A stretch of 20,000 nt of DNA, from the IMG/VR virus record IMGVR_UViG_3300025687_000023. One strand, 5' to 3'. Below, piece after piece: positions 1 to 9,964 of this stretch; positions within the stretch are counted from its first letter, which is position 1, and the number at the start of each line of letters is the position of its first letter. Both the position numbers and the translations under genes were made by a program. The notes beneath the pieces are model-generated. The model saw nothing but the letters and a program-made list of their open reading frames with translations, was not told where the DNA came from and did no database searches. Source of the stretch: an uncultured virus (IMG/VR IMGVR_UViG_3300025687_000023) (taxonomy: Duplodnaviria > Heunggongvirae > Uroviricota > Caudoviricetes).

Positions 1-432
1 GAAAGTTCTGTAATGCTTTTAGAACAAAAAAATGAAACTGAAGACAGACTTTTAATTTTAGAAAAAGAATTTTCTATAATTGACGAACAAACCAATGATG
101 CAATGCAATCTCTTGCATCTCATAGAGAAGAAATAGACAAGCTAAAAAGAGAAAAATCATTTAAACTAGCACAACACAAAGCTGCTGAATTGAAAAATCA
201 AGCATTTGAACAAATAAATGGCATTTCCGAAGATGCTGATTCTAAAGCAATAGAAAATATAAGAGAAGAAATAGATTCTGAAGTTGCAAAAGCAAACTTA
301 AATTCTGAAATGAACAAAAATTCTTATTCTTTTAAGATGAAAGCGTTAAAAACAAACTCTTCAAAACTAAAAGCACAAAAACAACTTGAAGCTTTAAAAC
401 AACAAAAAATAAAAATTGCAAAAAATTTATAA
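1..432 (+). CDS. PspA/IM30 (Vipp1)-family coiled-coil protein, C-terminal part (5'-truncated by window)
   Basis: Frame is open from base 1. The all-helical sequence EIDKLKREK..LAQHKAAE...EQINGISEDADSKAIENIREEIDSEVAKA...QLEALKQ follows the PspA/IM30 C-terminal pattern. Confidence 0.65.
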   Translation, partial: ESSVMLLEQKNETEDRLLILEKEFSIIDEQTNDAMQSLASHREEIDKLKREKSFKLAQHKAAELKNQAFEQINGISEDADSKAIENIREEIDSEVAKANLNSEMNKNSYSFKMKALKTNSSKLKAQKQLEALKQQKIKIAKNL

Positions 433-439
433 AAATTAC

Positions 440-468
440 TTGACAAATAAAACAAAACATGTTATATT
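440..468 (+). promoter_or_regulatory. sigma70-type early promoter P1
   Basis: TTGACA (440-445), 17 bp spacer ending TGT, TATATT (463-468); A-rich UP-like region; GGAGG RBS and ATG 497 follow. Confidence 0.9.
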
Positions 469-496
469 ATAAACATCAACAACAAACGGAGGAAAA

Positions 497-838
497 ATGA
501 AATATAAATTTGATTACAACGAATTTCAAAAAAACTATTCGGGAGAATCCACTGATAATTTTCTTGAATACCTGCAAAAAACAGATTTTAATTACTTTAC
601 ATGCCAAGAACAAGATAGTTACTTTGATTATGTAGAACAAAAGACCATAGAATCTTATGTAGATTATAAAAGAGGCTATTCTAAACAACTCTTGATAATT
701 CAAGAAAAAGAAACAAAAGAATACTATGGCATTGAATATACAGTCTACAATGATGGTGAAACTTATTCTGGCTCGTGGGAAAAATATAATAGAGTGAAAA
801 CTAGACCTGTCGTTTACAAGTACAAAGTAGCCGCATAA
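497..838 (+). CDS. hypothetical early phage protein (113 aa, Tyr/Glu-rich)
   Basis: Own promoter P1 and GGAGG RBS at 488-492; no family recognised. Confidence 0.85.
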   Translation: MKYKFDYNEFQKNYSGESTDNFLEYLQKTDFNYFTCQEQDSYFDYVEQKTIESYVDYKRGYSKQLLIIQEKETKEYYGIEYTVYNDGETYSGSWEKYNRVKTRPVVYKYKVAA

Positions 839-855
839 AAAATAAAAAAAAATAC

Positions 856-884
856 TTGACAAATAAAACAAAACATGTTATATT
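856..884 (+). promoter_or_regulatory. sigma70-type early promoter P2 (no ORF follows)
   Basis: TTGACA 856-861, 17 bp, TATATT 879-884; identical to the P1 core. Confidence 0.9.
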
Positions 885-890
885 AATAGT

Positions 891-965
891 ATAACAAACA
901 ACAAAACAAAACTTCATTAAGTTTGCTCTTTTCCTCCCATTTTTGTGGGAGGACCCTTTACATCG
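891..965 (+). ncRNA. candidate small non-coding RNA (two hairpins)
   Basis: Lies downstream of P2 with no + strand ORF. Hairpins AAACTT(909-914)/AAGTTT(919-924) and TCCTCCCA(932-939)/TGGGAGGA(946-953). Boundaries approximate. Confidence 0.45.
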
Positions 966-1001
966 CTGAAAAATAAAAATTAAAAAAAATAAAAAAAATA
1001 C

Positions 1002-1030
1002 TTGACACAATGTTAAAAACATGTTATATT
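1002..1030 (+). promoter_or_regulatory. sigma70-type early promoter P3
   Basis: TTGACA 1002-1007, 17 bp ending TGT, TATATT 1025-1030. Confidence 0.9.
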
Positions 1031-1041
1031 AATAACACGAT

Positions 1042-1079
1042 GGTTGATTGAGAGTTCAACCGAAATTAAAAACGCTCAA
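1042..1079 (+). promoter_or_regulatory. predicted H-type pseudoknot in 5' leader
   Basis: S1 GGTTGA(1042-1047)/TCAACC(1056-1061); loop TTGAG(1048-1052) pairs with CTCAA(1075-1079); A-rich linker between. Confidence 0.45.
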
Positions 1080-1114
1080 AACAATTAAGACATTTCAATT
1101 TATAAGGAGGATAT

Positions 1115-1378
1115 ATGTCTACAAATTCATTCACATTCAACGCTAACGTTTACACCGGAAGCTTCACAAAAAGAGATGGTTCTACACGAACAATGCGTTT
1201 CCTAAAGCAAAATGCTGTTCCACAATCTCTTCAAGGATCTGGACAAAAGCCACGTTATCTTGACACAAAACACGAAGTTGTATTCGATCTTGATCAAAAT
1301 GGCTGGAGAGTGTTTAATCACAATAGAGTTGTAGAAACACCAACATTTGAAAGACAAGAAGTAACTATCAACGGGTAA
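1115..1378 (+). CDS. WYL_2/DUF2693-like Sm/SH3 beta-barrel protein
   Basis: F-T-K-R-D-G-S-T-R-T-M ... V-F-D-L-D-Q-N-G-W-R-V-F matches the FxKxDGxxRxM...VxDxxxxxWRxF signature; AAGGAGG RBS. Confidence 0.7.
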   Translation: MSTNSFTFNANVYTGSFTKRDGSTRTMRFLKQNAVPQSLQGSGQKPRYLDTKHEVVFDLDQNGWRVFNHNRVVETPTFERQEVTING

Positions 1379-1423
1379 TTAACTCAACAAAATTTTCAAC
1401 AAACAAATATTTAAATAAGTTTT

Positions 1424-1546
1424 AATAACTTCCTCCGAGTTGTTTGCCAAGATCACCAACGCTTATAAAAAACTTGGCCCCTTTTTATCTTCCTATTTCA
1501 AGGACTGAAAATGGAAGCATTTATCTGGTTGAGACACAAAGTGTCT
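1424..1546 (+). other. multi-hairpin structured intergenic region / SSB leader
   Basis: Four consecutive stems: 1424-1431/1437-1444 (loop CCTCC); GCCAAG 1446-1451/CTTGGC 1473-1478 followed by a T-run; CTTCC..TTTCA 1489-1500/TGAAA..GGAAG 1506-1517; AGACAC 1532-1537/GTGTCT 1541-1546. Confidence 0.55.
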
Positions 1547-1592
1547 TTGCCTTAGACAGTTAAGTCAATAATAACAACATAGGAGTAAAATT

Positions 1593-2348
1593 ATGGCATT
1601 AGATCTAGAAGCAATGCGAGCTAAATTGGACGCATCAAAAAATGGTAACTCTGCAAAACAGCAAGATACCAAATGGAAACCAGAACAAGGAGACCAAACA
1701 ATTAGAATTCTTCCAACAAAAGATGGAGATCCGTTCAAGGAATATCACTTTCATTATAATGTTGGTAAAAATCCTGGGATTCTTTGTCCTAAGAAGAACT
1801 TTAATGAAGAATGTCCAATCTGTGATTTCGCGTCAAAGCTTTGGAAAGAAGGAGTTGAAAACAATGATGAAGTTGCTAAGCGAGAAGCTAAGAAATTATT
1901 TGTCAGAAAACGTTATTATTCTCCAATCTTGGTTAGAGGACAAGAATCAGAAGGCGTTAAAATCTGGGCTTACGGTAAGCAAGCTTATGAAACATTATTG
2001 GGGTATGTTTTAGATCCTGATTATGGTGATATTACAGACGCTGAAGCTGGAACTGACATAGTGTTAAATTATGATGTTCCTGGAACTCCTGGTTCGTTTC
2101 CAAAAACCACTCTTAAGCCTCGCCGTCGTCCATCCGTTCTTTGTGATGATGATGTTGCTGATTGCGAAGCTCTGCTTAACTCGGTACCAGACATTGGTGC
2201 TTTGTTTGAGCGAAAAACAACGGCTGATGTTCAAGCTATTTTGAACGAAGCTCTTTCTACTGACGGCTCTGAAGGTTCAACCTCCGAGACCTATAAGTAT
2301 GGTGAGCAAGATGCTGTTGATGCTGCCTTCGATAAATTGGGAGCTTAA
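1593..2348 (+). CDS. single-stranded DNA-binding protein, T4 gp32-like
   Basis: WKP..G..TIRILP, His/Cys zinc-type motif (FHY...LCPKK..EECPICD), G.KIW.YGK, DYGDITD..G.D and an acidic C-terminal tail; replication-module context. Confidence 0.85.
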   Translation: MALDLEAMRAKLDASKNGNSAKQQDTKWKPEQGDQTIRILPTKDGDPFKEYHFHYNVGKNPGILCPKKNFNEECPICDFASKLWKEGVENNDEVAKREAKKLFVRKRYYSPILVRGQESEGVKIWAYGKQAYETLLGYVLDPDYGDITDAEAGTDIVLNYDVPGTPGSFPKTTLKPRRRPSVLCDDDVADCEALLNSVPDIGALFERKTTADVQAILNEALSTDGSEGSTSETYKYGEQDAVDAAFDKLGA

Positions 2349-2359
2349 GAGAAACGGTC

Positions 2360-2384
2360 GCCCTCTCCGTTATGAGGGCACTTT
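2360..2384 (+). terminator. stem-loop after ssb (weak terminator or processing site)
   Basis: GCCCTC(2360-2365)/GAGGGC(2374-2379), followed by only a short T-run (ACTTT). Confidence 0.45.
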
Positions 2385-2404
2385 AATCAAATAAAGGAGA
2401 CAAA

Positions 2405-2605
2405 ATGATTAATTTATTATTATTAGCACTTATTGCATGTGGAGCTGAAGAAGAAACAGACACATCAAAAGAAGCTGAAGTGGAAGAAACACAAGAAGAA
2501 GTTACCGAAGAGCAAACAGAAGAAAGCTCCGAGGAAGTTCCAGCAGAGGAAGAAACAGAAGAAAGTTCTGAAGAAACTCCTGCCGAAGAAGGAACAGAAG
2601 AATAG
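2405..2605 (+). CDS. small acidic lipoprotein-like protein
   Basis: AAGGAG RBS; MINLLLLALIA-C lipobox followed by a Glu-rich disordered tail with a 13-aa repeat. Confidence 0.75.
   Translation: MINLLLLALIACGAEEETDTSKEAEVEETQEEVTEEQTEESSEEVPAEEETEESSEETPAEEGTEE
2515..2602 (+). repeat. 39-bp (13-aa) imperfect coding tandem repeat
   Basis: AACAGAAGAA starts at 2515, 2554 and 2593; TEESSEEVPAEEE / TEESSEETPAEEG / TEE. Confidence 0.8.
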
Positions 2606-2631
2606 TTCATAGTACCTCCGAAACAATGAAC

Positions 2632-2672
2632 ATGCAGGGTTAGGGAGTCTCCTGCGTTGAGAAATGACTCCC
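2632..2672 (+). promoter_or_regulatory. predicted H-type pseudoknot upstream of GHKL ATPase gene
   Basis: S1 ATGCAGGG(2632-2639)/TCCTGCGT(2650-2657), including 2 G-U pairs; S2 GGGAGTC(2643-2649)/GACTCCC(2666-2672), a perfect 7 bp. Confidence 0.6.
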
Positions 2673-2699
2673 ATTTTACTATCAACAAGGAGAGATACT

Positions 2700-4406
2700 A
2701 TGCCAAAATATTTTAGTACACCAGACCCAGCAAGACAATTAACAGAAATAATAAACAGAATAGGAAACCAAACACCAATAGAAATGATTATCAGGGAAGC
2801 AGCAATAAACGGTCACGATGCAAATAAAAGATTTTCTCGAGAAGTAAGAGGGGTTGTACATTTTACAAGAGACTGGGAATATCCTAAGAAACTATCTATT
2901 ATAAACTATAATGGAGAGTATTTTGGAGAAAAAAACTTAGAAGCATTTATGACAGTTGCATATACTAATAATTTAAATCCAGAGCAAACTTCAGAAAACT
3001 TTGGTATTGGAGCAAAAACTTCATATCTTTTGCATGGAGCTATGTTATACAGAACTAAAAAAGCGGGAGAAGAACTAGGAACTTATTTTATTATAGAGAA
3101 AGACAAAGAAACAGGAAACTATGGTTTAAGAGATATTTGGTGCCCTTATAATGAACATTGGACAAATACTCCGGTCTGTGATAAATTTTCTCAATATTTA
3201 ACTATTGATACTGAAGGTACTGAAATGGTCCTACTGGGAAATTCAGATGATCAAGACACTTTCCTTCAACTAGACCACAGCTCCAGTATTTCCGGAAAAT
3301 CAGAAGGTACAGGTTGGTCAATCTCTAACTATCTTAGTATGAGACTTTTCAAAGATATTGGCACTACTTTTAAAGTAGAAATTCAAAATACAACCACAAA
3401 TGAAAAAATTAGAGATAACAAGATTAAACCTTTGTTAGATTATTTATCTTCTTGTAAAAGATATGGAAACTTTCCCTTACAAGGTAATAACATTCCAGAA
3501 GGAACTATTGCTCACTATGGACTTGTCCCTCAAGGAGATAAAATAATGACTTTTAGCTCTGGTTTTGTTTCTTTCGCTTATAAGAATGAAAATTATTTAA
3601 ACCAAAAGATACATCCAGCTGCTAAAGCCCAACAGTTGATTAGTTGCGGAATTCATACAAAACCAAATAGTTGGTTTATTGTTTTTGAGTTACCAGAAAC
3701 AGAAAACATAAATATTGAAATGCATAGAAAATCTCTCGATGGTATCGAGAAGGAACTTTATTATAGTGCATTTGCACAGAATCTTCCGGAAGAAATATTA
3801 GATTGGTTGGAAAACGAAGTTAGCGCAAAAGATGATACAAGAGAAATTGATGATTGGCTCAAAGATAGATTTAAATTTAAAATAGAGCAAGACACATGTG
3901 GTAAAGAAAAGGGCGATAAGGTTTGTAATGATTCAGAAAAAACTATTCCTTTAACTCCTGAAGAGCAACAAAAAACAGCTAGAATTTCAAAATTTCAAAA
4001 AGAAAATAAAAGCACAATACCACCTAAAAAAATACAAAACTTTGACATCCCAAACCATAGAAGAGTATCTCATGGAGAAACTTTACCACTCGTTCAATTC
4101 AATTTTGATGCCTACACGATAACTGTAAATGAAGATAATCCTTTGTGGAAATACAGAGTTCAGCAAATTTCTAAGGATTTCAATACAGGTATTGAATCAA
4201 TAATAGAAACTGAAGTATATAGAAGAATCTTAGACTCAGCTATTGGGGCAATTTTTGAAATTCAAGAAGTATATCCAAAGGAAACAATACATAATAAAAA
4301 AGACAAGTGGAGTCCGGAAATCTTATCTAGCATTTGGACCAAAGATCAGGTCAATAATTCTAACAGATATTTAAAGAAAAAATATTCTAATTTTGTAAAA
4401 AAATAA
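2700..4406 (+). CDS. GHKL (HATPase_c / Hsp90-MORC-like) ATPase domain protein with unknown C-terminal region
   Basis: Bergerat motifs: REAAINGHDA (N-box), degenerate G1 (NYNGEYF), ENFGIGAK (G2), EGTEMVL (GT). The start at 2700 has an AGGAG RBS; the ORF-track start at 2664 lies inside the pseudoknot. Confidence 0.75.
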   Translation: MPKYFSTPDPARQLTEIINRIGNQTPIEMIIREAAINGHDANKRFSREVRGVVHFTRDWEYPKKLSIINYNGEYFGEKNLEAFMTVAYTNNLNPEQTSENFGIGAKTSYLLHGAMLYRTKKAGEELGTYFIIEKDKETGNYGLRDIWCPYNEHWTNTPVCDKFSQYLTIDTEGTEMVLLGNSDDQDTFLQLDHSSSISGKSEGTGWSISNYLSMRLFKDIGTTFKVEIQNTTTNEKIRDNKIKPLLDYLSSCKRYGNFPLQGNNIPEGTIAHYGLVPQGDKIMTFSSGFVSFAYKNENYLNQKIHPAAKAQQLISCGIHTKPNSWFIVFELPETENINIEMHRKSLDGIEKELYYSAFAQNLPEEILDWLENEVSAKDDTREIDDWLKDRFKFKIEQDTCGKEKGDKVCNDSEKTIPLTPEEQQKTARISKFQKENKSTIPPKKIQNFDIPNHRRVSHGETLPLVQFNFDAYTITVNEDNPLWKYRVQQISKDFNTGIESIIETEVYRRILDSAIGAIFEIQEVYPKETIHNKKDKWSPEILSSIWTKDQVNNSNRYLKKKYSNFVKK

Positions 4407-4434
4407 AAAACCATAATAATAAGGAGAAACAACA

Positions 4435-5556
4435 ATGGGAAAAGTAATACAAATGGCAACACAAAAAGCAGGAAAAATCAATATAGCAGACTTAAAAAAG
4501 TCAATGAATAAATCAATGGGAATTGAGGCAGCACATGACCTAAGAGAAGATAATCCAACTGAAGTTAAAGATTGGATTCCAACAGGTTCAAGATGGCTCG
4601 ACTCTATTATTTGTAAAGGAAAAATGGGAGGCATTCCCGTTGGAAAGATAACAGAAATTGCTGGACTATCATCTGTCGGTAAGTCTTATCTTGCTGTTCA
4701 AATAGCAGCTCAAGCACAAAAACAAGGAAAGTTTGTGGTTTATTATGATGCAGAATCAGCGATAGATCCTGTTTTTCTTTCAGATGCTGGAATAGACATG
4801 GATAATAACTTTCTTTATGTTCAAGCAGTTTCAGTTGAAATAGTTTTAAAAGCAATCGAAGATATGATGAACCAATACGGAGACCAACAACAATTTGTTT
4901 TTATTTGGGATTCAATTGCAGCAACACCATCAGATAAAGACTTAGAAGGCGATTTCAATCCTCAATCTTCAATGGCCGTTAAGCCAAGAATCTTTGCTAA
5001 AGCATTTCCAAAACTAACAATTCCTTTAGCAAATGGACAACACACTCTTATTCTTATAAATCAATTAAAAACAAACATCACAAGCAATATAGCTGAGGCT
5101 TTAACAACACCTTACATAGCACCTGGTGGTAAAGCAATAGAGTACTTCTGCTCACTTCGTATTTGGCTCACAGGTCGTAAATCAAAGCAATCTTTTGTTC
5201 TTGATGAATCAGGAAGACGAGTTGGATCTGAGGTTAAAACAAAGATAGTTAAATCTCGCTTTGGAACCCAAGATAGAATTTGCGTTTTTCAAATCCGTTG
5301 GGGAGATAATGTTGGGATCATGGATGAAGAATCATGGCTTGAGGTAATAAAACAATCATCTTCTTATAAAAACGCTGGTGGTTGGTGTGTCCTGGAGCAC
5401 AAAGGAAAAGAACATAAATTCCGAGCTAAAGATTGGATGGATAAACTAAAAGATAAAGAATTTAAAGAAATAGTTTCTGAAATAATGGATGAAGAATTAA
5501 TACATAAATTTGAGTCATCTGGCTCAAACATTGTTCCAGACGACATAGACGATTAA
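4435..5556 (+). CDS. recA: RecA/UvsX-like recombinase
   Basis: WIPTGS..LD, GGIPVGKITEIAG, Walker A GLSSVGKS, YDAESA, Walker B FIWDS, LINQL, PGGKAIEY. Confidence 0.95.
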   Translation: MGKVIQMATQKAGKINIADLKKSMNKSMGIEAAHDLREDNPTEVKDWIPTGSRWLDSIICKGKMGGIPVGKITEIAGLSSVGKSYLAVQIAAQAQKQGKFVVYYDAESAIDPVFLSDAGIDMDNNFLYVQAVSVEIVLKAIEDMMNQYGDQQQFVFIWDSIAATPSDKDLEGDFNPQSSMAVKPRIFAKAFPKLTIPLANGQHTLILINQLKTNITSNIAEALTTPYIAPGGKAIEYFCSLRIWLTGRKSKQSFVLDESGRRVGSEVKTKIVKSRFGTQDRICVFQIRWGDNVGIMDEESWLEVIKQSSSYKNAGGWCVLEHKGKEHKFRAKDWMDKLKDKEFKEIVSEIMDEELIHKFESSGSNIVPDDIDD

Positions 5557-5580
5557 CATAATGCTCCTGTTGTTGATGGT

Positions 5581-5611
5581 AGCCCCCTTGCATTCGCTTG
5601 GGGGTTTTTTT
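5581..5611 (+). terminator. rho-independent terminator after recA
   Basis: AGCCCCC(5581-5587)/GGGGGTT(5600-5606) stem followed by a T-run. Confidence 0.85.
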
Positions 5612-5624
5612 ATTTCTAAAGACC

Positions 5625-5631
5625 CTATTTA
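5625..5631 (+). promoter_or_regulatory. putative late-promoter motif CTATTTA
   Basis: Lies between the recA terminator and ATG 5650, where no sigma70 promoter exists; the same core recurs at 11889, 13074 and 19211. Confidence 0.5.
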
Positions 5632-5649
5632 CTAAAGCGGAGAAATGAC

Positions 5650-6405
5650 ATGAAATTAACTAAAAGTAATCTTTATAAACTTATAAACGAAGCAATAAAC
5701 GAAGCTTGGGCTGTTAAATCTGGGACTAGAATTCCCACACAAAAAGCTGGTTCTTCTTCTTTACAAGCAACACAATATCCAAACCCTGGAGATGCTTATA
5801 AAGCTTACCAAAATGGGGTTGAGTTACACGGTTGGGACAAATATGCACAAATAATTTCCGATCTTTATGATGCAGCTCCTGACTCTACACCTTCAGGTCT
5901 AGAGCAATTTAAGCAATTTCAAAGCAAAACAGCTTCATTACACAAACCAATAGAAGGGATCTATAACATTGAATATGTAGACAGACAACCTTATGTTTCA
6001 GCAAAAGAAATGTCAGACAAAATGAAAGAAACAGGTAAGTTTGAAATTTCATCTCAATTTCTTCAATCAGACGATCCAGAAGAAATAAAAACAAACTTAC
6101 AAAACAGAGCAGTTCATGATTATTATGGACACCTTAGAGCCAGAGGTCATGAAAAAGACCCATCAGTTATTGGAGAGTTCTCTTTGATTGGTGAATTGAT
6201 AGCTTATAACAATCAGTTAAAAATTACATCGCCAAAGATAGTTCCTTTGATGTTTACTCTTATTGTAGGACAAGCCGCCTATTTCTATTACAAAGGGCAC
6301 TTCCCGAAATTAAAACTATCAGAACTTCCTGGTGTTGATTATTTTAACATTGGAAACATTGATGGTTATGAAATAACACCAGACAATGATTTAAGGAAAA
6401 TATAA
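5650..6405 (+). CDS. MKLTK-leader protein with RAVHDxxGH domain (putative metal-binding enzyme; candidate head/ejected protein)
   Basis: N-terminus MKLTKSNLYKLINEAINE; core NRAVHDYYGH...FSLIGE...FTLIVGQ...GHF resembles a motif I recall from uncharacterised phage and polyvalent proteins. Confidence 0.6.
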   Translation: MKLTKSNLYKLINEAINEAWAVKSGTRIPTQKAGSSSLQATQYPNPGDAYKAYQNGVELHGWDKYAQIISDLYDAAPDSTPSGLEQFKQFQSKTASLHKPIEGIYNIEYVDRQPYVSAKEMSDKMKETGKFEISSQFLQSDDPEEIKTNLQNRAVHDYYGHLRARGHEKDPSVIGEFSLIGELIAYNNQLKITSPKIVPLMFTLIVGQAAYFYYKGHFPKLKLSELPGVDYFNIGNIDGYEITPDNDLRKI

Positions 6406-7127
6406 TGAAAATAAGAATTTTAAGAGAATTTAGAGAAACTATTCCAACTATTAAAGCCACCAGACAACAAATGTTGTCAGCAGAACACAATACACGAGTT
6501 TTATCTGATGATCTTGTTTTATTTGAACAATTTACAGAAGACTTTAACATTATATTTTCGACACCTGACAATCCTAACCTAGAATATTGTAAAATTTTCT
6601 ATAATGGCTTAGCTCAGAATTCTAATTCTGAATATCTGACAATGTACACAGTAGAGAAGCTATCTCAAATGTATCTAGTAATGCCAGAGGACAAAACAGC
6701 TGGAATGGGTTGCGATCAAAACGGACATATGGGTTCTGGTTGGAACAATGGTTCTCGAAGAGGAGTTTTGAAAAAATTAATGGATTACGCAAGAGATAAC
6801 TTTGGTGGACGTTCCGGAGATCATTTTGATGGTGGTCTTGGAGGTTACTATGCTTCATTAGGTTTAACAGAAGTATACCAAATTCTTGAATGGGACCCAC
6901 AATATGCTCCAAGTGATTGGAATTATAAACCAATTGATGTTTTTAATCCAAAGAAATCTGTTTATGCTCCAGCAGTACAAATTTATCAACAAAATCCAAC
7001 CTCCGCTCCTCAACAAAAAATGGAATTAGTGGTAGAAAGCGGCTTTAAAATTACAACAAGTCCTTACCACAAAATACTTCAATACTCAAATGGCGAACCA
7101 GATGTAGTTTATAGAAGATATCCATAA
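6405..7127 (+). CDS. GNAT-fold-like (acetyltransferase-like) phage protein
   Basis: TAATG coupling to the upstream gene. RRGVLKKLMDYA (motif A-like), GG...DHFDG.L..YY..LG..EV (motif B-like), W.PQYAP.DW.Y and GEPDVV resemble a phage GNAT-like domain. Confidence 0.55.
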   Translation: MKIRILREFRETIPTIKATRQQMLSAEHNTRVLSDDLVLFEQFTEDFNIIFSTPDNPNLEYCKIFYNGLAQNSNSEYLTMYTVEKLSQMYLVMPEDKTAGMGCDQNGHMGSGWNNGSRRGVLKKLMDYARDNFGGRSGDHFDGGLGGYYASLGLTEVYQILEWDPQYAPSDWNYKPIDVFNPKKSVYAPAVQIYQQNPTSAPQQKMELVVESGFKITTSPYHKILQYSNGEPDVVYRRYP

Positions 7128-7141
7128 AATTATTTTTTTTC

Positions 7142-7170
7142 TTGACAAAAATGATCTTTCGTGTTATAAT
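7142..7170 (+). promoter_or_regulatory. sigma70-type promoter P4
   Basis: TTGACA 7142-7147, 17 bp ending TGT, TATAAT 7165-7170. Confidence 0.92.
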
Positions 7171-7195
7171 ATAAACATCATAAAACGGAGGATAT

Positions 7196-7291
7196 ATGAA
7201 TTATGATTATATATGGGCTTTATTTGCCCTTGTTTTTATTGTTTTGCCAATAGCAGGTGCTTTCATTATGCACCATGATTGGAGGCGATAG
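7196..7291 (+). CDS. 31-aa single-pass membrane peptide (absent from ORF track)
   Basis: GGAGG RBS directly after P4; MNYDYIWALFALVFIVLPIAGAFIMHHDWRR*; stops 1 nt before the next ATG. Confidence 0.8.
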   Translation: MNYDYIWALFALVFIVLPIAGAFIMHHDWRR

Positions 7292-7292
7292 A

Positions 7293-7616
7293 ATGAAAAA
7301 AGAAAAAGATGAAGTTATGAGTGAAAGAATAAAGCACCACTTAGAAAAAGCTAAAGAACGAGGTGTTGTATTGGGCAACCCTAATTTAGAAGAAGTTAGG
7401 CATCTAGCTCACGAAGCAAAGAAAAGAAACGCAGATGTATTTGCTATGTATTTTGGTCCTGTAATTCATGAACTAAGATCATCCGGAAAATCTTTTCAGA
7501 AAATTGCTGATGATCTAGATTCCATTGGACTCACTACTAGACAAGGTGGTAAATGGCATCCAACAACAGTTAAGAATTGTCTCGATAGGTACATACAATT
7601 AATGGAGGAAGAATGA
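7293..7616 (+). CDS. stand-alone C-terminal (helix E + recombinase/HTH DNA-binding) part of a serine recombinase, no catalytic domain
   Basis: GGAGG at 7281-7285; SERIK..L..AKERGV.LGNP ... SFQKIADDL..G.TTRQGGKWHPTTV. Confidence 0.75.
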   Translation: MKKEKDEVMSERIKHHLEKAKERGVVLGNPNLEEVRHLAHEAKKRNADVFAMYFGPVIHELRSSGKSFQKIADDLDSIGLTTRQGGKWHPTTVKNCLDRYIQLMEEE

Positions 7617-8563
7617 AAAACCTATTAATAATTGATGGTCTCAACATGTTCTTAAGAAACTATGTTGTGAACCCAACACTAGCACCTGACGGTAACCCAT
7701 TAGGCGGCTGTATTGGCTTTTTAAAGAGCCTTCAAAAGGTTTGTGGTATGTTTAGCCCTGACGAGATTATAATAGCGTGGGACGGTCATTCTGGCTCTTC
7801 TAAACGCAAAGAAATGAACAAGGAATACAAAGACGGTCGCAAACCTGTAAGATTTAACAGAAGAATGGTCGAGTTGAACGAAGAACAACAAAAACTTAAT
7901 AAAGCAGAACAATATATTAAACTCGTGGAGTATCTAAATGAAACACCAATTATACAAGCAGTTGTGGATTATGTGGAAGCCGATGATATTATCGCTTATG
8001 CTGTTAAGCACGATAAATATCGAGACTATCATAAGTACATTGTGTCAAGCGACAGAGACTTCTTTCAACTCGTTGGAGAAGATTGCACCCTCTGGAGACC
8101 AATCCAGAAGAAGTTGGTGGATTTCAAATCTCTCATGGACGAACACGGTATTCATCCCAATAATTTTGCCCTTTGTCGTGCCATTGCTGGAGATAAGTCA
8201 GATAACTTGCCAGGGATACCTAGAGCTGGGCTTAAAACAATCAAAAGCCGCTTTCCTTTTATGGCTGACCCAGAGGTACAAACTGTTGAATCGCTTGCAG
8301 AGTTTTGCAGACAAGTGGACAAACCGGTTTCACTTCATGAAAACATACTTGGAGGTCTTGATTTAATAGAAAGCAATTATGATATCATGCAGTTATACAA
8401 ACCTGTAATGGGAACAGTAGCAAAACAACAAGTAGAATTCTCCATAAACCATTTTGAACCTGAATGGAATAAAATAGAATTCCAAAAGTTCTTAATGCGT
8501 GACGGACAAATTACTTTAAAGTTTGATCTGCTTTTTGCAACATTTAATAAAATAATTTCTTGA
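7613..8563 (+). CDS. 5'-3' exonuclease / flap endonuclease (T4 RNase H / PolI N-terminal-like)
   Basis: LIIDGLN, AWDG, YKDGR, VEADDIIA, SSDRDFFQL, GDKSDNLPGI. Confidence 0.95.
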   Translation: MKNLLIIDGLNMFLRNYVVNPTLAPDGNPLGGCIGFLKSLQKVCGMFSPDEIIIAWDGHSGSSKRKEMNKEYKDGRKPVRFNRRMVELNEEQQKLNKAEQYIKLVEYLNETPIIQAVVDYVEADDIIAYAVKHDKYRDYHKYIVSSDRDFFQLVGEDCTLWRPIQKKLVDFKSLMDEHGIHPNNFALCRAIAGDKSDNLPGIPRAGLKTIKSRFPFMADPEVQTVESLAEFCRQVDKPVSLHENILGGLDLIESNYDIMQLYKPVMGTVAKQQVEFSINHFEPEWNKIEFQKFLMRDGQITLKFDLLFATFNKIIS

Positions 8564-8587
8564 CATTTAGAAATTCTAGGTTATACT
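8560..8587 (+). promoter_or_regulatory. sigma70-type promoter P5 (helicase-RNR operon)
   Basis: TTGACA 8560-8565, 16 bp, TATACT 8582-8587; GGAGG RBS follows. Confidence 0.75.
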
Positions 8588-8608
8588 TATTGAACACTCG
8601 GAGGTAAT

Positions 8609-9964
8609 ATGAATAAGGAAAAAGATACCTTTGTCTTTTATGGCAAAGACTTTCAAGAAAAGGTGGCACAATTGATGCTTGAAGACCGACCTTTTTGCGA
8701 TCAAATAGAAGAGGTCTTAGAACTAGAATTCTTCTCTTCTGCTTATATCAGAGCATTAGTAGAAACAGTTCTAGACTATAGAAACAAATACGAAAGGCAT
8801 CCACACTTTGCCACAATAGAAACTGAGGTAAAGAAAGGAAACAAGAACTATGATAAAGCAGTTCAATCTCAAGTCAGTCAGTTTGTCGGTAGAATTAAAG
8901 CTAATGAGCTAACAGATAGAGATTATATCAAAGACCAGGCTGTTGATTTCTGTAAGAAACAATGTCTTAAGAAAGCTATTCTTGAATCAGCTGATTTAGT
9001 CAAGAAAGGTGATTACGATTCAATTACAAAAATAATTAATGAGGCTCTATCAAAAGGAAATGACCAAAACTTTGGTCACGATTGGTTTAAAGACTTAGAT
9101 CATCGTTACATCAAAAAGTCTCGCAAACCAATAACAACAGGTTGGCAGAAAATTGATGAAATAACCAAAGGTGGTATTGGCTCAAAAGAGTTAGCTGTTG
9201 TTATTGCTCCAACTGGTGCTGGTAAGTCAATGGTTTTGGTTCATCTTGGAGCTGAAGCCCTCAAACTTGGAAAGAAAGTTGTTCATTATACTTTAGAGCT
9301 TGCAGACACTGTTGTTGGTATTCGTTATGATTCTTGTTTATCAAAAGTTGATCTTCGAGATATCATGGATTCTAAAGATATTGTTAAAGAAAGAATAAAA
9401 GATGTTTCTGGAAAACTAATTATCAAAGAATATCCAACTAAATCTGCTTCAACGAAGTCCATAAAGAATCATTTGGAGAAGTTAAAAAAGCAAAACATCT
9501 TACCTGATGTTGTCATTGTTGACTATGCTGATTTGCTTCGACCTGTTTCTCACGGAGCTGAAAAGAGACATGACTTGGAAGGAATCTATGAAGAGTTGAG
9601 AGGGCTTGCATCTGAATTTGATTGCGCCTTTATAACAGCATCACAAACAAACCGTGGAGGTCTTAATGCTGAAGTTATCACAATGGAGTCTATTTCAGAA
9701 GCTTTTAATAAGTGCTTTGTTGCTGACTTCATTTTCTCGTTATCAAGAACACCACAAGATAAACAAGCTAACGCAGGCCGTTTATTTATTGCTAAAAATA
9801 GAAACGGACCAGATGGTCTTGTCTTTCCAGCTGCCGTTGATTGGGCAACTGTTTCAATAGATGTGCTAGATAGAAGAGGTGATGAAGAGCCTCCACAATT
9901 GACTGCTAAAGAACAATTATCAAGTCTTCAAAAGTATTATACAAAACTATCAGGATCAAAATAA
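8609..9964 (+). CDS. replicative DnaB-like (T4 gp41-like) helicase
   Basis: ITTGW..ID..T.GG, Walker A APTGAGKS, YTLEL, IKEYPT, VIVDYADL, TASQTNR, AKNRNGPDG. Confidence 0.95.
   Translation: MNKEKDTFVFYGKDFQEKVAQLMLEDRPFCDQIEEVLELEFFSSAYIRALVETVLDYRNKYERHPHFATIETEVKKGNKNYDKAVQSQVSQFVGRIKANELTDRDYIKDQAVDFCKKQCLKKAILESADLVKKGDYDSITKIINEALSKGNDQNFGHDWFKDLDHRYIKKSRKPITTGWQKIDEITKGGIGSKELAVVIAPTGAGKSMVLVHLGAEALKLGKKVVHYTLELADTVVGIRYDSCLSKVDLRDIMDSKDIVKERIKDVSGKLIIKEYPTKSASTKSIKNHLEKLKKQNILPDVVIVDYADLLRPVSHGAEKRHDLEGIYEELRGLASEFDCAFITASQTNRGGLNAEVITMESISEAFNKCFVADFIFSLSRTPQDKQANAGRLFIAKNRNGPDGLVFPAAVDWATVSIDVLDRRGDEEPPQLTAKEQLSSLQKYYTKLSGSK

Follow-up and report, generated by a model that had tools for sequence, protein, structure and literature searches.

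Comparative evidence for an anti-start element between recA and the operon terminator in an uncultured phage lineage

In RNA phages, as in the MS2 coat-replicase case, a distant sequence masks a translation start and translating ribosomes open it. Small RNAs of the CpxQ, DapZ and SroC type are derived from 3' untranslated regions (3'UTRs) and share the terminator of their mRNA, and the 3' end of the hok mRNA folds back to inhibit. To our knowledge, only a few cases of 3'UTR control of bacterial or phage genes are known. In Staphylococcus aureus icaR, a UCCCCUG motif in the 3'UTR pairs with the Shine-Dalgarno sequence (SD) of the same mRNA, which blocks the initiation complex and supplies RNase III with a substrate, as set out in the part of PMC3868564 that deals with this interaction. 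The relevant part of PMC12697547 reports that, in Bacillus subtilis, anti-SD (aSD)-like stretches hundreds of nucleotides away pair with the ribosome-binding site (RBS) and repress, and that such stretches are depleted from genes. For phage T4, the part of PMC3014915 concerned with RNA control describes gp32 as nucleating on a pseudoknot and spreading over an unstructured A+U-rich region, and the genes e, soc, 49 and I-TevI as having their SD and/or AUG held in an RNA helix depending on the transcript; that same part gives no functionally defined trans-acting regulatory RNA for T4-type phages. The present study concerns a stretch of 20,000 nucleotides (nt), here called the window, which is 20 kb out of a 23 kb record of an uncultured virus (IMGVR_UViG_3300025687_000023). 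Behind its recombinase gene (recA) lies a short element, D, which comparison among relatives identifies as a real anti-start element, conserved and covarying with its apparent target, the start region of a gp32-like single-stranded DNA-binding protein (SSB) gene. D would be a variant of the known RNA control types, found in a DNA phage lineage without a cultured member.

The whole comparative analysis rests on a series of 80 related viral contigs (individual loci bear an L and a number), whose gp32 is 50-100% identical and which have the gene order g1115-gp32-...-recA in common; relatives were counted as distinct sequences, the genomes being related nonetheless. A megablast search of positions 1-9000 against phage records gave no match. 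No cultured phage is close, the best protein identities being 34.5% for recA and 36.9% for gp32. In the window, the RecA/UvsX-like recombinase gene (4435..5556, + strand; PF00154, E 7e-37) is followed directly by D (5557..5581, +; CATAATGCTCCTGTTGTTGATGGTA), which reads as the complement of the gp32 start region, with anti-AUG, anti-SD and anti-leader parts, and which had first been noticed as the string CATAATGCTCCTGTTGTTGATG at 5557-5578. The operon ends with an intrinsic terminator (5581..5611, +; stem 5581-5587/5600-5606, then a T run to 5611), and comparable terminator hairpins follow recA in relatives. D lies between the recA stop codon and this terminator, 0-24 nt after the stop codon, with the CTCCT of the window at 5564-5568. 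The expectation that D be conserved was borne out: 35 of the 43 distinct sequences carried CTCCT in the 30 nt ahead of their recA terminator, and the motif was absent upstream of 14 of 14 terminators 3' of gp32 and of 11 of 11 other terminators. The surroundings of D have diverged in relatives, as seen in the terminator stems, the spacer lengths and the following genes. D is unpaired in the centroid fold. Out-of-frame variation of the spacer between the recA stop and the motif indicates that D is not a coding extension; both a C-terminal extension of recA and a small + strand open reading frame (ORF) were rejected on account of these spacers, in-frame stops and an ATG at 5561 that is not kept.

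The gp32-like gene (1593..2348, +; PF08804, E 9e-18) has its translation initiation region, the proposed target of D, at 1574..1595 (+; ACAACATAGGAGTAAAATTATG; SD 1582-1585, ATG 1593-1595). Duplex folding of 37 distinct pairs gave a mean of -14.7 kcal/mol for D with the gp32 start of its own genome, as against -12.0 across genomes, a difference that was reached by 0 of 10000 permutations (z-score against shuffled D, -4.0). The own duplex had a median of 16 base pairs (bp), its first paired base stood, by the median, 4 nt past the recA stop, and it covered the SD in 35 and the start codon in 18 of the 37 pairs. Clade-specific changes at the start were found to be mirrored in D. The gp32 SD TGAGGT of L068 faces ATCTCG in D (18 bp, -24.4), and the SD AGGAAA of L065 and L070 faces TTTCCT. 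In L025, ..GGAGAATAACATG faces CATGTAAGTTCTCC; the start context of that clade is AACATG and its D begins with CATGT, and the window has ATTATG facing CATAAT. L051 and L078 possess quite different leaders, which D mirrors over 18 bp. Among representatives of five clades, the own start was the best partner of D in four and the second best in one (P=0.009). The gp32 start was among the top 1% of sites for D in 13 and among the top 5% in 27 of the 37 genomes. Two control starts gave no own-versus-other effect, namely that of g1115 (P=0.86, n=11) and that of the gene after gp32 (P=0.51, n=27). The effect at the start of recA itself was small (-0.97 kcal/mol), and this start was rejected as a target of D, given an effect of only about 1 kcal/mol.

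D RNA would pair with the gp32 SD, the spacer and often the AUG, and would lower gp32 translation. It could do so in cis, within a polycistronic mRNA, or in trans, if a fragment of the recA 3'UTR ending at the terminator is the acting RNA. Promoter P3 (1002..1030, +) is the likely start of the operon g1115-gp32-g2405-g2700-recA. From 1030 to 5581 the + strand holds no consensus promoter and no strong terminator, so that the gp32 start and D could plausibly stand together on one message of 4.6 kb; the 3' end of recA likewise holds no internal consensus promoter. Given that the recA stop codon is where D begins, it would be covered or melted by ribosomes that complete recA, and gp32 synthesis would track recA translation. 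The D:gp32 complementarity persists where a terminator-like hairpin follows gp32, for example in L025 and L043, which speaks for action in trans, with the recA message or a fragment of it ending at the shared terminator as the agent, or else for read-through. The D:gp32 duplex in vivo, the repression, its cis or trans character and the unmasking by ribosomes are what we infer from the sequence comparison.

Among described systems, D appears to resemble most closely the 3'UTR-to-SD pairing of the icaR type, or a 3'UTR-derived small RNA, aimed in this case at another cistron. As in icaR, the complement of an SD region is found in a 3'UTR, in the form of a pyrimidine-rich anti-SD motif. Unlike icaR, D faces the start of a different cistron, gp32, situated either one to three genes upstream or on a separate transcript; the 3'UTR is very short and starts at the stop codon; and the complementarity spans leader, SD, spacer and often AUG. 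Small RNAs of the CpxQ, DapZ and SroC type offer the likeness of a conserved seed directly upstream of an intrinsic terminator, and hok that of a 3'-end element silencing a start. The terminator at 5581-5611 is shared with the parent mRNA and the conserved, unpaired D stands just upstream of it; what differs is that a discrete small transcript from D, or a processing site, is only putative. Long-distance pairing opened by ribosomes, the logic of the RNA phages, is the logic proposed for the recA stop and D, although those phages have single-stranded RNA genomes and a mask inside the upstream gene, whereas here a DNA phage would carry its mask behind the downstream gene. With the T4 genes in which the RBS is sequestered, D would share the masking of a start according to which transcript carries the partner strand; in the cases covered by the part of PMC3014915 cited above, the T4 partner lies immediately upstream, in longer early transcripts, and not 1-4 kb downstream at the end of an operon. 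The B. subtilis stretches of PMC12697547 are likewise pyrimidine-rich and pair with an RBS from afar, but the relevant part of that work describes aSD-like sequences as depleted, whereas here they are retained and covarying, which points to use rather than avoidance. If true, this would be a new way of balancing two proteins whose joint work on single-stranded DNA calls for a fixed proportion. The lineage belongs to an abundant marine phage family, uncultured so far, that offers a natural compensatory series for one interaction, between a recombinase 3'UTR and an SSB start, and since promoters and SDs are of a common bacterial type, the idea can be tested by reporters without the native host.

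D had been grouped in the original prediction with four further intergenic strings, A, B, C and E, as one recurrent system of RNA-based translational control acting on the phage's own leaders or on GGAGG-type starts in general. All five strings are present at their assigned positions. The suggested count of CCTCC and CTCCT against shuffled controls was carried out on the sense strand of the 1318 nt called intergenic in the 20 kb window, with 5000 dinucleotide-preserving shuffles, and a nominal excess was found: CCTCC or CTCCT occurred 5 times against 0.76 expected (P=0.002), CCTCC 3 times against 0.33 (P=0.003), CTCCT twice against 0.43 (P=0.06) and CTCC 7 times against 1.52 (P=0.0006), these P values being post hoc because the motif had been picked after inspection. 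The excess of CTCC and CCTCC is real at face value, despite the small post hoc test. All three intergenic CCTCC lie within the first 2.7 kb, and four of the seven intergenic CTCC (934, 2365, 2649 and 2668) are stem arms opposite arms that bear GGAG. The single system was not supported: A, E and half of C are local stems, and B gives no own-versus-other signal. What is upheld of the proposal of anti-start control through the phage's own leaders is D, which is conserved, covarying, placed in a 3'UTR and beside a terminator, and the target class narrows to one such leader, the gp32 start region. The earlier view is thus partly supported, the anti-SD-like strings having three different origins: local stems, D and a heptamer. 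We judge it probable that the region holds the control elements of one conserved operon, g1115-gp32-(g2405)-(g2700)-recA, in which these three origins jointly account for the strings.

With regard to the local stems, the string A (TTTTCCTCC, 929-937) had been matched to the leader GGAGGAAAA (488-496) of the gene at 497-838, whose SD is ACGGAGG. Both sequences are in place, but the CCTCC of A pairs locally with an adjacent GGGAGG in the hairpin CCTCCCA(933-939)/TGGGAGG(946-952), which forms element A proper (933..952, +). This is an optional insertion between GCTCT and TACATCGC, within the short conserved stretch that separates two tandem promoters, found only in the window lineage, L013 and L018/L020/L022 and missing from the other relatives displayed. 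L018 has CCTCTCA/TGAGAGG, a compensatory change that keeps the stem and not the CCTCC, and L013 has CCTCTCA/TGGGAGG. By this pattern, element A is a local hairpin.

The string E (CTCCGTT, 2365-2371) does lie inside the repeat GCCCTC..GAGGGC; its anti-start role fell away, E being an arm of a predicted H-type pseudoknot directly after the gp32 stop (element E, 2353..2379, +; AACGG tc GCCCTC t CCGTT at GAGGGC). Since MAFFT alignments placed the short knot stems of different clades out of register, column counts were replaced by a scripted architecture search with shuffled controls. The E architecture was found in 43 of 52 distinct relatives and in 12 of 1040 shuffles, with 17 distinct arm pairs for stem 1 (S1), among them CGG/CCG, GCC/GGC, CCGCT/AGCGG and AGTG/CACT, and 25 for stem 2 (S2). 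Element C consists of two parts. The first (2605..2631, +), directly after the stop of g2405, is the hairpin GTTCAT/ATGAAC with the conserved loop AGTACCTCCGAAACA; three of the six pairs of its helix 1 show a compensatory change, and ACCTCCGAAA in the loop is kept in all six distinct relatives that possess C. The second (2634..2672, +) is an H-type pseudoknot, GCAGG gtta GGGAGTC t CCTGC gttgagaaat GACTCCC, which is the recA leader in relatives; in the window lineage only, g2700 is inserted after it. For the C hairpin and the recA-leader knot together (8 sequences), 91.3% of cells pair, as against 38-53% with partners slid; five pairs have changed on both sides, and the covariation score is 0.204 against 0.135 in shuffles, none of 500 of which reach it. 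The recA-leader knot architecture occurs in 27 of 50 distinct recA leaders and in 2 of 1000 shuffles. Behind gp32 and in the recA leader alike, the 3' arm of S1 lies within the S2 loop and both stems covary, as in an H-type pseudoknot. E and two of the CTCC of C are, on this comparative evidence, arms of conserved pseudoknots with GGAG on the partner arms. A knot motif of the recA-leader type, CAGGGAGGCAYGGGTTNNAGRTGCCTC, recurs elsewhere in related genomes (L010, L012, L042, L056, L075 and others), and, as a T run and then a promoter often follow, it may double as a terminator.

The gp32 leader itself is structured. Its conserved part (1439..1566, +), aligned across 26 leaders, comprises the helix GCCAAG(1446-51)/CTTGGC(1473-78), possibly knotted with GTTG(1439-42)/CAAC(1457-60), then the hairpins 1489-1517 and 1527-1551, a CCTTAG motif and the mini-hairpin GAC(1555-57)/GTC(1564-66). 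The 214-nt leader has 32 consensus pairs, 13 of them with compensatory changes, and four covarying helices. S2 of the possible knot (1446-51/1473-78) covaries strongly (CG 13 / UA 13; AU 17 / GC 8). More distant relatives have a promoter and then directly a hairpin, YTTAG and the mini-hairpin ahead of gp32. The stretch 1567-1595 (AATAATAACAACATAGGAGTAAAATTATG) is unpaired in the consensus, save for a proposed and invariant GUUGU:AUGGC pairing, and provides the unstructured A+U-rich approach to the RBS that characterises the operator of T4 gene 32. Both here and in the recA leader, a knot or hairpin comes first, then an A-rich unstructured stretch and then the RBS. A knot or hairpin followed by an A-rich stretch into the RBS, in a gene of the gp32 family, is also the arrangement of the T4 operator as given in the part of PMC3014915 on gp32, and similar knots flank gp32 and precede recA in the present lineage. 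As this order matches the operator at which gp32 binds in T4, the gp32 protein would, by analogy, bind the gp32 and recA leader knots. There are also differences: sequence or Rfam similarity to the T4 operator is absent, the leader is longer and has four covarying helices, knots occur 3' of gp32 and ahead of recA as well, and T4 is without a known downstream anti-start element. Pseudoknot-rich leaders would thereby carry the theme of the T4 gene 32 operator to a distant lineage.

Element B (1431..1444, +; TCCTCCGAGTTGTT, with CCTCCGA at 1432-1438) stands at the 5' edge of this leader. Its CCTCCG is kept only where gp32 is at least 84% identical; L013 has CCTTCT, L017 has CCTTCC, and it is absent in the 75-78% clade. 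The minimum free energy (MFE) fold of the window pairs CUCC(1433-36) and GUUGUU(1439-44) of B with GGAG(1582-85) and AACAAC(1573-78). The model therefore raises the prospect that B may be a second, local mask of the start that D faces, although this helix is not kept in the 26-sequence consensus and is limited to the closest clade.

The third origin is a heptamer, CCUCCGA, common to B, the C loop and the gp32 reading frame, where the window has it in frame at 2281-2287 (ACC TCC GAG). CCTCCGA is carried by 46 of 53 distinct gp32 genes, in every case written NCC-TCC-GAN and located in the 3' part, most gp32 genes having one to three copies; among recA genes, 4 of 50 carry it. For the tripeptide [ST]-S-[DE], gp32 uses the coding NCC-TCC in 76 of 140 cases, whereas other ORFs at these loci use it in 5 of 225, so that the heptamer is kept at synonymous sites. 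Its place is not fixed across clades (in L011 one site has gone and a different one has appeared), which suggests that it is kept at the nucleotide level and selected for its presence. CCUCCGA is the exact complement of UCGGAGG, the form of SD typical of promoter-proximal genes: C|GGAGG or C|GGGGG was found in 71 of 148 promoter-proximal start regions and in 39 of 540 others. A C preceding GGAGG adds no pairing with the usual 16S tail. A role of the heptamer as a trans-acting anti-SD against the SDs of early genes is possible.

From these features one trans-acting anti-SD system could still be constructed, in which small RNAs or exposed loops on abundant middle mRNAs block GGAGG-type early or host starts through a CCUCCGA seed. 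Such a system would fit the conservation of the C loop while the C stem covaries, and it has a candidate target in the DnaB-like helicase gene (8609-9964, +), whose promoter and short leader (ACTCGGAGGTAATATGAA; 8560..8613, +) score above every other site of the 20 kb + strand as a predicted partner of C (-23.6). The string C (TTCATAGTACCTCCG, 2606-2620) is confirmed inside the inverted repeat GTTCAT..ATGAAC (2605-2631), and when reverse-complemented it matches 8599-8613 except at 1 of the 15 positions, as had been noted. Repression by distant aSD-like sequences has a precedent in B. subtilis, and the depletion of such sequences from genes otherwise, as described in the relevant part of PMC12697547, makes their retention here unusual; the heptamer in gp32 contrasts with that reported general depletion. 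We nevertheless consider one common system unlikely. No covarying partner was found for B or for the motif inside gp32. The match of B (CCTCCGAGT, 1432-1440) to the helicase leader (ACTCGGAGG, 8596-8604) exists in the window but is not kept among relatives: where B has become CCGTG or CCGCG the helicase leader does not follow, as in L087 and L090 (TTCGGAGG); a B with CCGTG goes with TTCGG in the helicase leader, and the B:helicase pairing was accordingly rejected. The C stem of L007, changed from TTCAT to TCCAT, weakens the matches to the starts of its own helicase and of the short frame g7196, and the change is compensated within the hairpin. Neither the helicase nor the g7196 leaders follow changes in B or in the C stem, and C against a g7196-type or helicase start in the L007 genome was dismissed for want of a compensating change. 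CGGAGG-type SDs persist in clades without B and C, A and E pair locally, and separate small transcripts are without support in assembled metatranscriptome contigs, which cannot show ends. A pattern scan for further carriers of C returned 47 stretches, of which only 9 were known relatives (6 distinct sequences), the rest being unrelated.

Several points weigh against the reading of D as an anti-start element of gp32 and of its neighbours as local structures. The gp32 start is the single best 33-nt site for D within its own locus in only 1 of 37 genomes, and in the window D scores the starts of gene 497 (-21.4) and g2700 (-20.6) above that of gp32 (-18.9). The duplex is weak in L029, L050, L060 and L062. 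Mismatches in the strand-of-selection test were 17 of G.U type and 10 of A.C type, so that the + strand is not clearly favoured. In the five-clade test the identity assignment was the best of 120, and just 120 permutations were possible; the relatedness of the genomes means, moreover, that permutation P values overstate independence. Action in cis may not apply to every genome, a terminator-like hairpin and T run following directly after gp32 in 14 distinct relatives. Three metatranscriptome runs gave only short assembled contigs, covering 1355-1514 and 1489-1648 (the end of g1115 and the gp32 leader) and 5425-5575 (the end of recA into D), which speak for presence only, with DNA carry-over possible. 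With regard to the neighbours, the S1 stems of the knots are just 3 bp long in several clades, and the candidate S1 GTTG/CAAC of the gp32 leader never varies among the 26 leaders. B did not covary with the starts of gp32, g1115 or the upstream gene (P=0.97, 0.40 and 0.56), and as an anti-start of any of these it was rejected in the absence of an own-versus-other signal; the heptamer inside gp32 did not covary with the gp32 start either (P=0.99), and its pairing with that start was rejected as weak.

The mismatch spectrum would suit an explanation at the level of DNA, by which D is an inverted copy of a start, that is, the remnant or working start of a minus-strand micro-ORF or an inverted repeat maintained by recombination. 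The reverse complement of D reads as a full start region, with A/C-rich leader, AGGAG, spacer and ATG; a minus-strand start codon follows the mirrored SD by 3-12 nt in 24 of 38 motif-bearing relatives; and the mirrored C motif has 47 unrelated hits among viral contigs, the majority of which resemble ordinary minus-strand starts. It is, however, quite improbable. The remaining 14 of 38 relatives have no start codon, the minus-strand frames are 2-28 amino acids (aa) long (one 69 aa) and mutually dissimilar, and the credible genes of the window are all on the + strand, in keeping with the earlier view that no minus-strand gene accounts for the sites. Spacers between the recA stop and the motif differ in length without keeping frame. 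Gene conversion would have little to work on in copies of about 20 nt, 75-85% alike and 1-4 kb apart, and still these copies follow the changes specific to each clade. Finally, it is very improbable that the strings are unspecific and came about by chance where an AT-rich genome has GC-rich stems and pyrimidine tracts, with the D:gp32 match reflecting generic leader composition: although SD plus ATG is generic, many other stretches per locus equal or exceed the gp32 start in their pairing with D, and the enrichment was assessed post hoc, CTCCT proved specific to the recA 3'UTR (35/43 vs 0/25), the own-versus-other effect is confined to the gp32 start and absent for the g1115 and next-gene starts of the same genomes, and D mirrors even such variant SDs as TGAGGT and AGGAAA.

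Taking D as an anti-start element of gp32, a wider proposal can be put forward tentatively, namely that the lineage runs part of its replication and recombination by RNA-RNA pairing instead of protein repressors, in which the unmasking of D and a heptamer sponge or silencer act jointly. D, unmasked only while ribosomes finish recA, would keep SSB and recombinase in step, and the CCUCCGA copies on the abundant gp32/recA message would sponge or silence the UCGGAGG starts of promoter-proximal early genes, as an RNA counterpart of the early shut-off by RegA/RegB in T4.

Upstream of gp32, g1115 (1115..1378, +) codes for a protein of 87 aa with a sub-threshold match to WYL_2, an Sm-like SH3 barrel (E 1.8e-5, 25.3 bits, cut-off 26.7), and is syntenic with gp32, directly upstream of it, in most relatives; its product is a candidate small nucleic-acid-binding protein within an RNA-rich operon. 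Its leader contains a hairpin (1042..1079, +; GGTTG(1042-1046)/CAACC(1057-1061)), the loop of which, TTGAG(1048-1052), can pair with CTCAA(1075-1079) to give a candidate pseudoknot. The hairpin was present in 18 of 21 distinct leaders, with 7 distinct arm pairs, and a loop-to-downstream helix of at least 5 bp was found in all 18 hairpin-bearing leaders as against 300 of 900 controls.

The window has eight near-perfect sigma-70-type promoters, every one on the + strand. P1 (440..468, +; consensus sigma-70 type, TTGACA-17-TATATT, TG extended) lies ahead of gene 497-838. P2 (856..884, +) is the first of two tandem promoters and drives a short conserved non-coding stretch; the unit between the tandem consensus promoters (856-1001; ACTTCATTAAGTTTGCTCT..ACATCGCTGA) holds neither ORF nor terminator, and its hairpin AACTT(910-914)/AAGTT(919-923) covaries (AACTT/AAGTT, ACCTT/AAGGT, AGCTT/AAGCT). 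By its sequence, the unit could be a small RNA or a protein-binding site. Rfam gave no match at E up to 1 on either strand of the whole window, and a search of the window for tRNA and tmRNA found none.

Between gp32 and recA, g2405 (2405..2605, +) encodes a small acidic protein, the N-terminus of which reads as lipoprotein-like, and g2700 (2700..4406, +) a protein of 568 aa without a Pfam match. Only in the window lineage (L004-L006) does g2700 stand between the recA-type leader and recA; in relatives, recA comes directly after the leader. A g2700 homologue, 22% identical, lies at another place in L022, and L081 has a tRNA-like sequence at the g2700 spot, which suggests that this site is an insertion hotspot.

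Further genes of the window include those for a 5'-3' exonuclease, a class II ribonucleotide reductase and ThyX. A protein of 61 aa encoded at 12540-12725 matches the histone H1-like Hc1 family (PF07432, E 5e-8), which is unusual in a phage. Helicases down to 54% identity (L084-L163) each have a consensus promoter to themselves, after which comes a very short leader with (T/A)CGGAGG or ACGGGGG at its end. The frame g7196 (7196-7292), with 32 codons and a strong start (ACGGAGGATATATG), lies directly after a promoter at 7142-7170 and codes for a hydrophobic peptide; short frames of 30-32 aa with similar starts follow promoters in L007, L009, L010 and L017.

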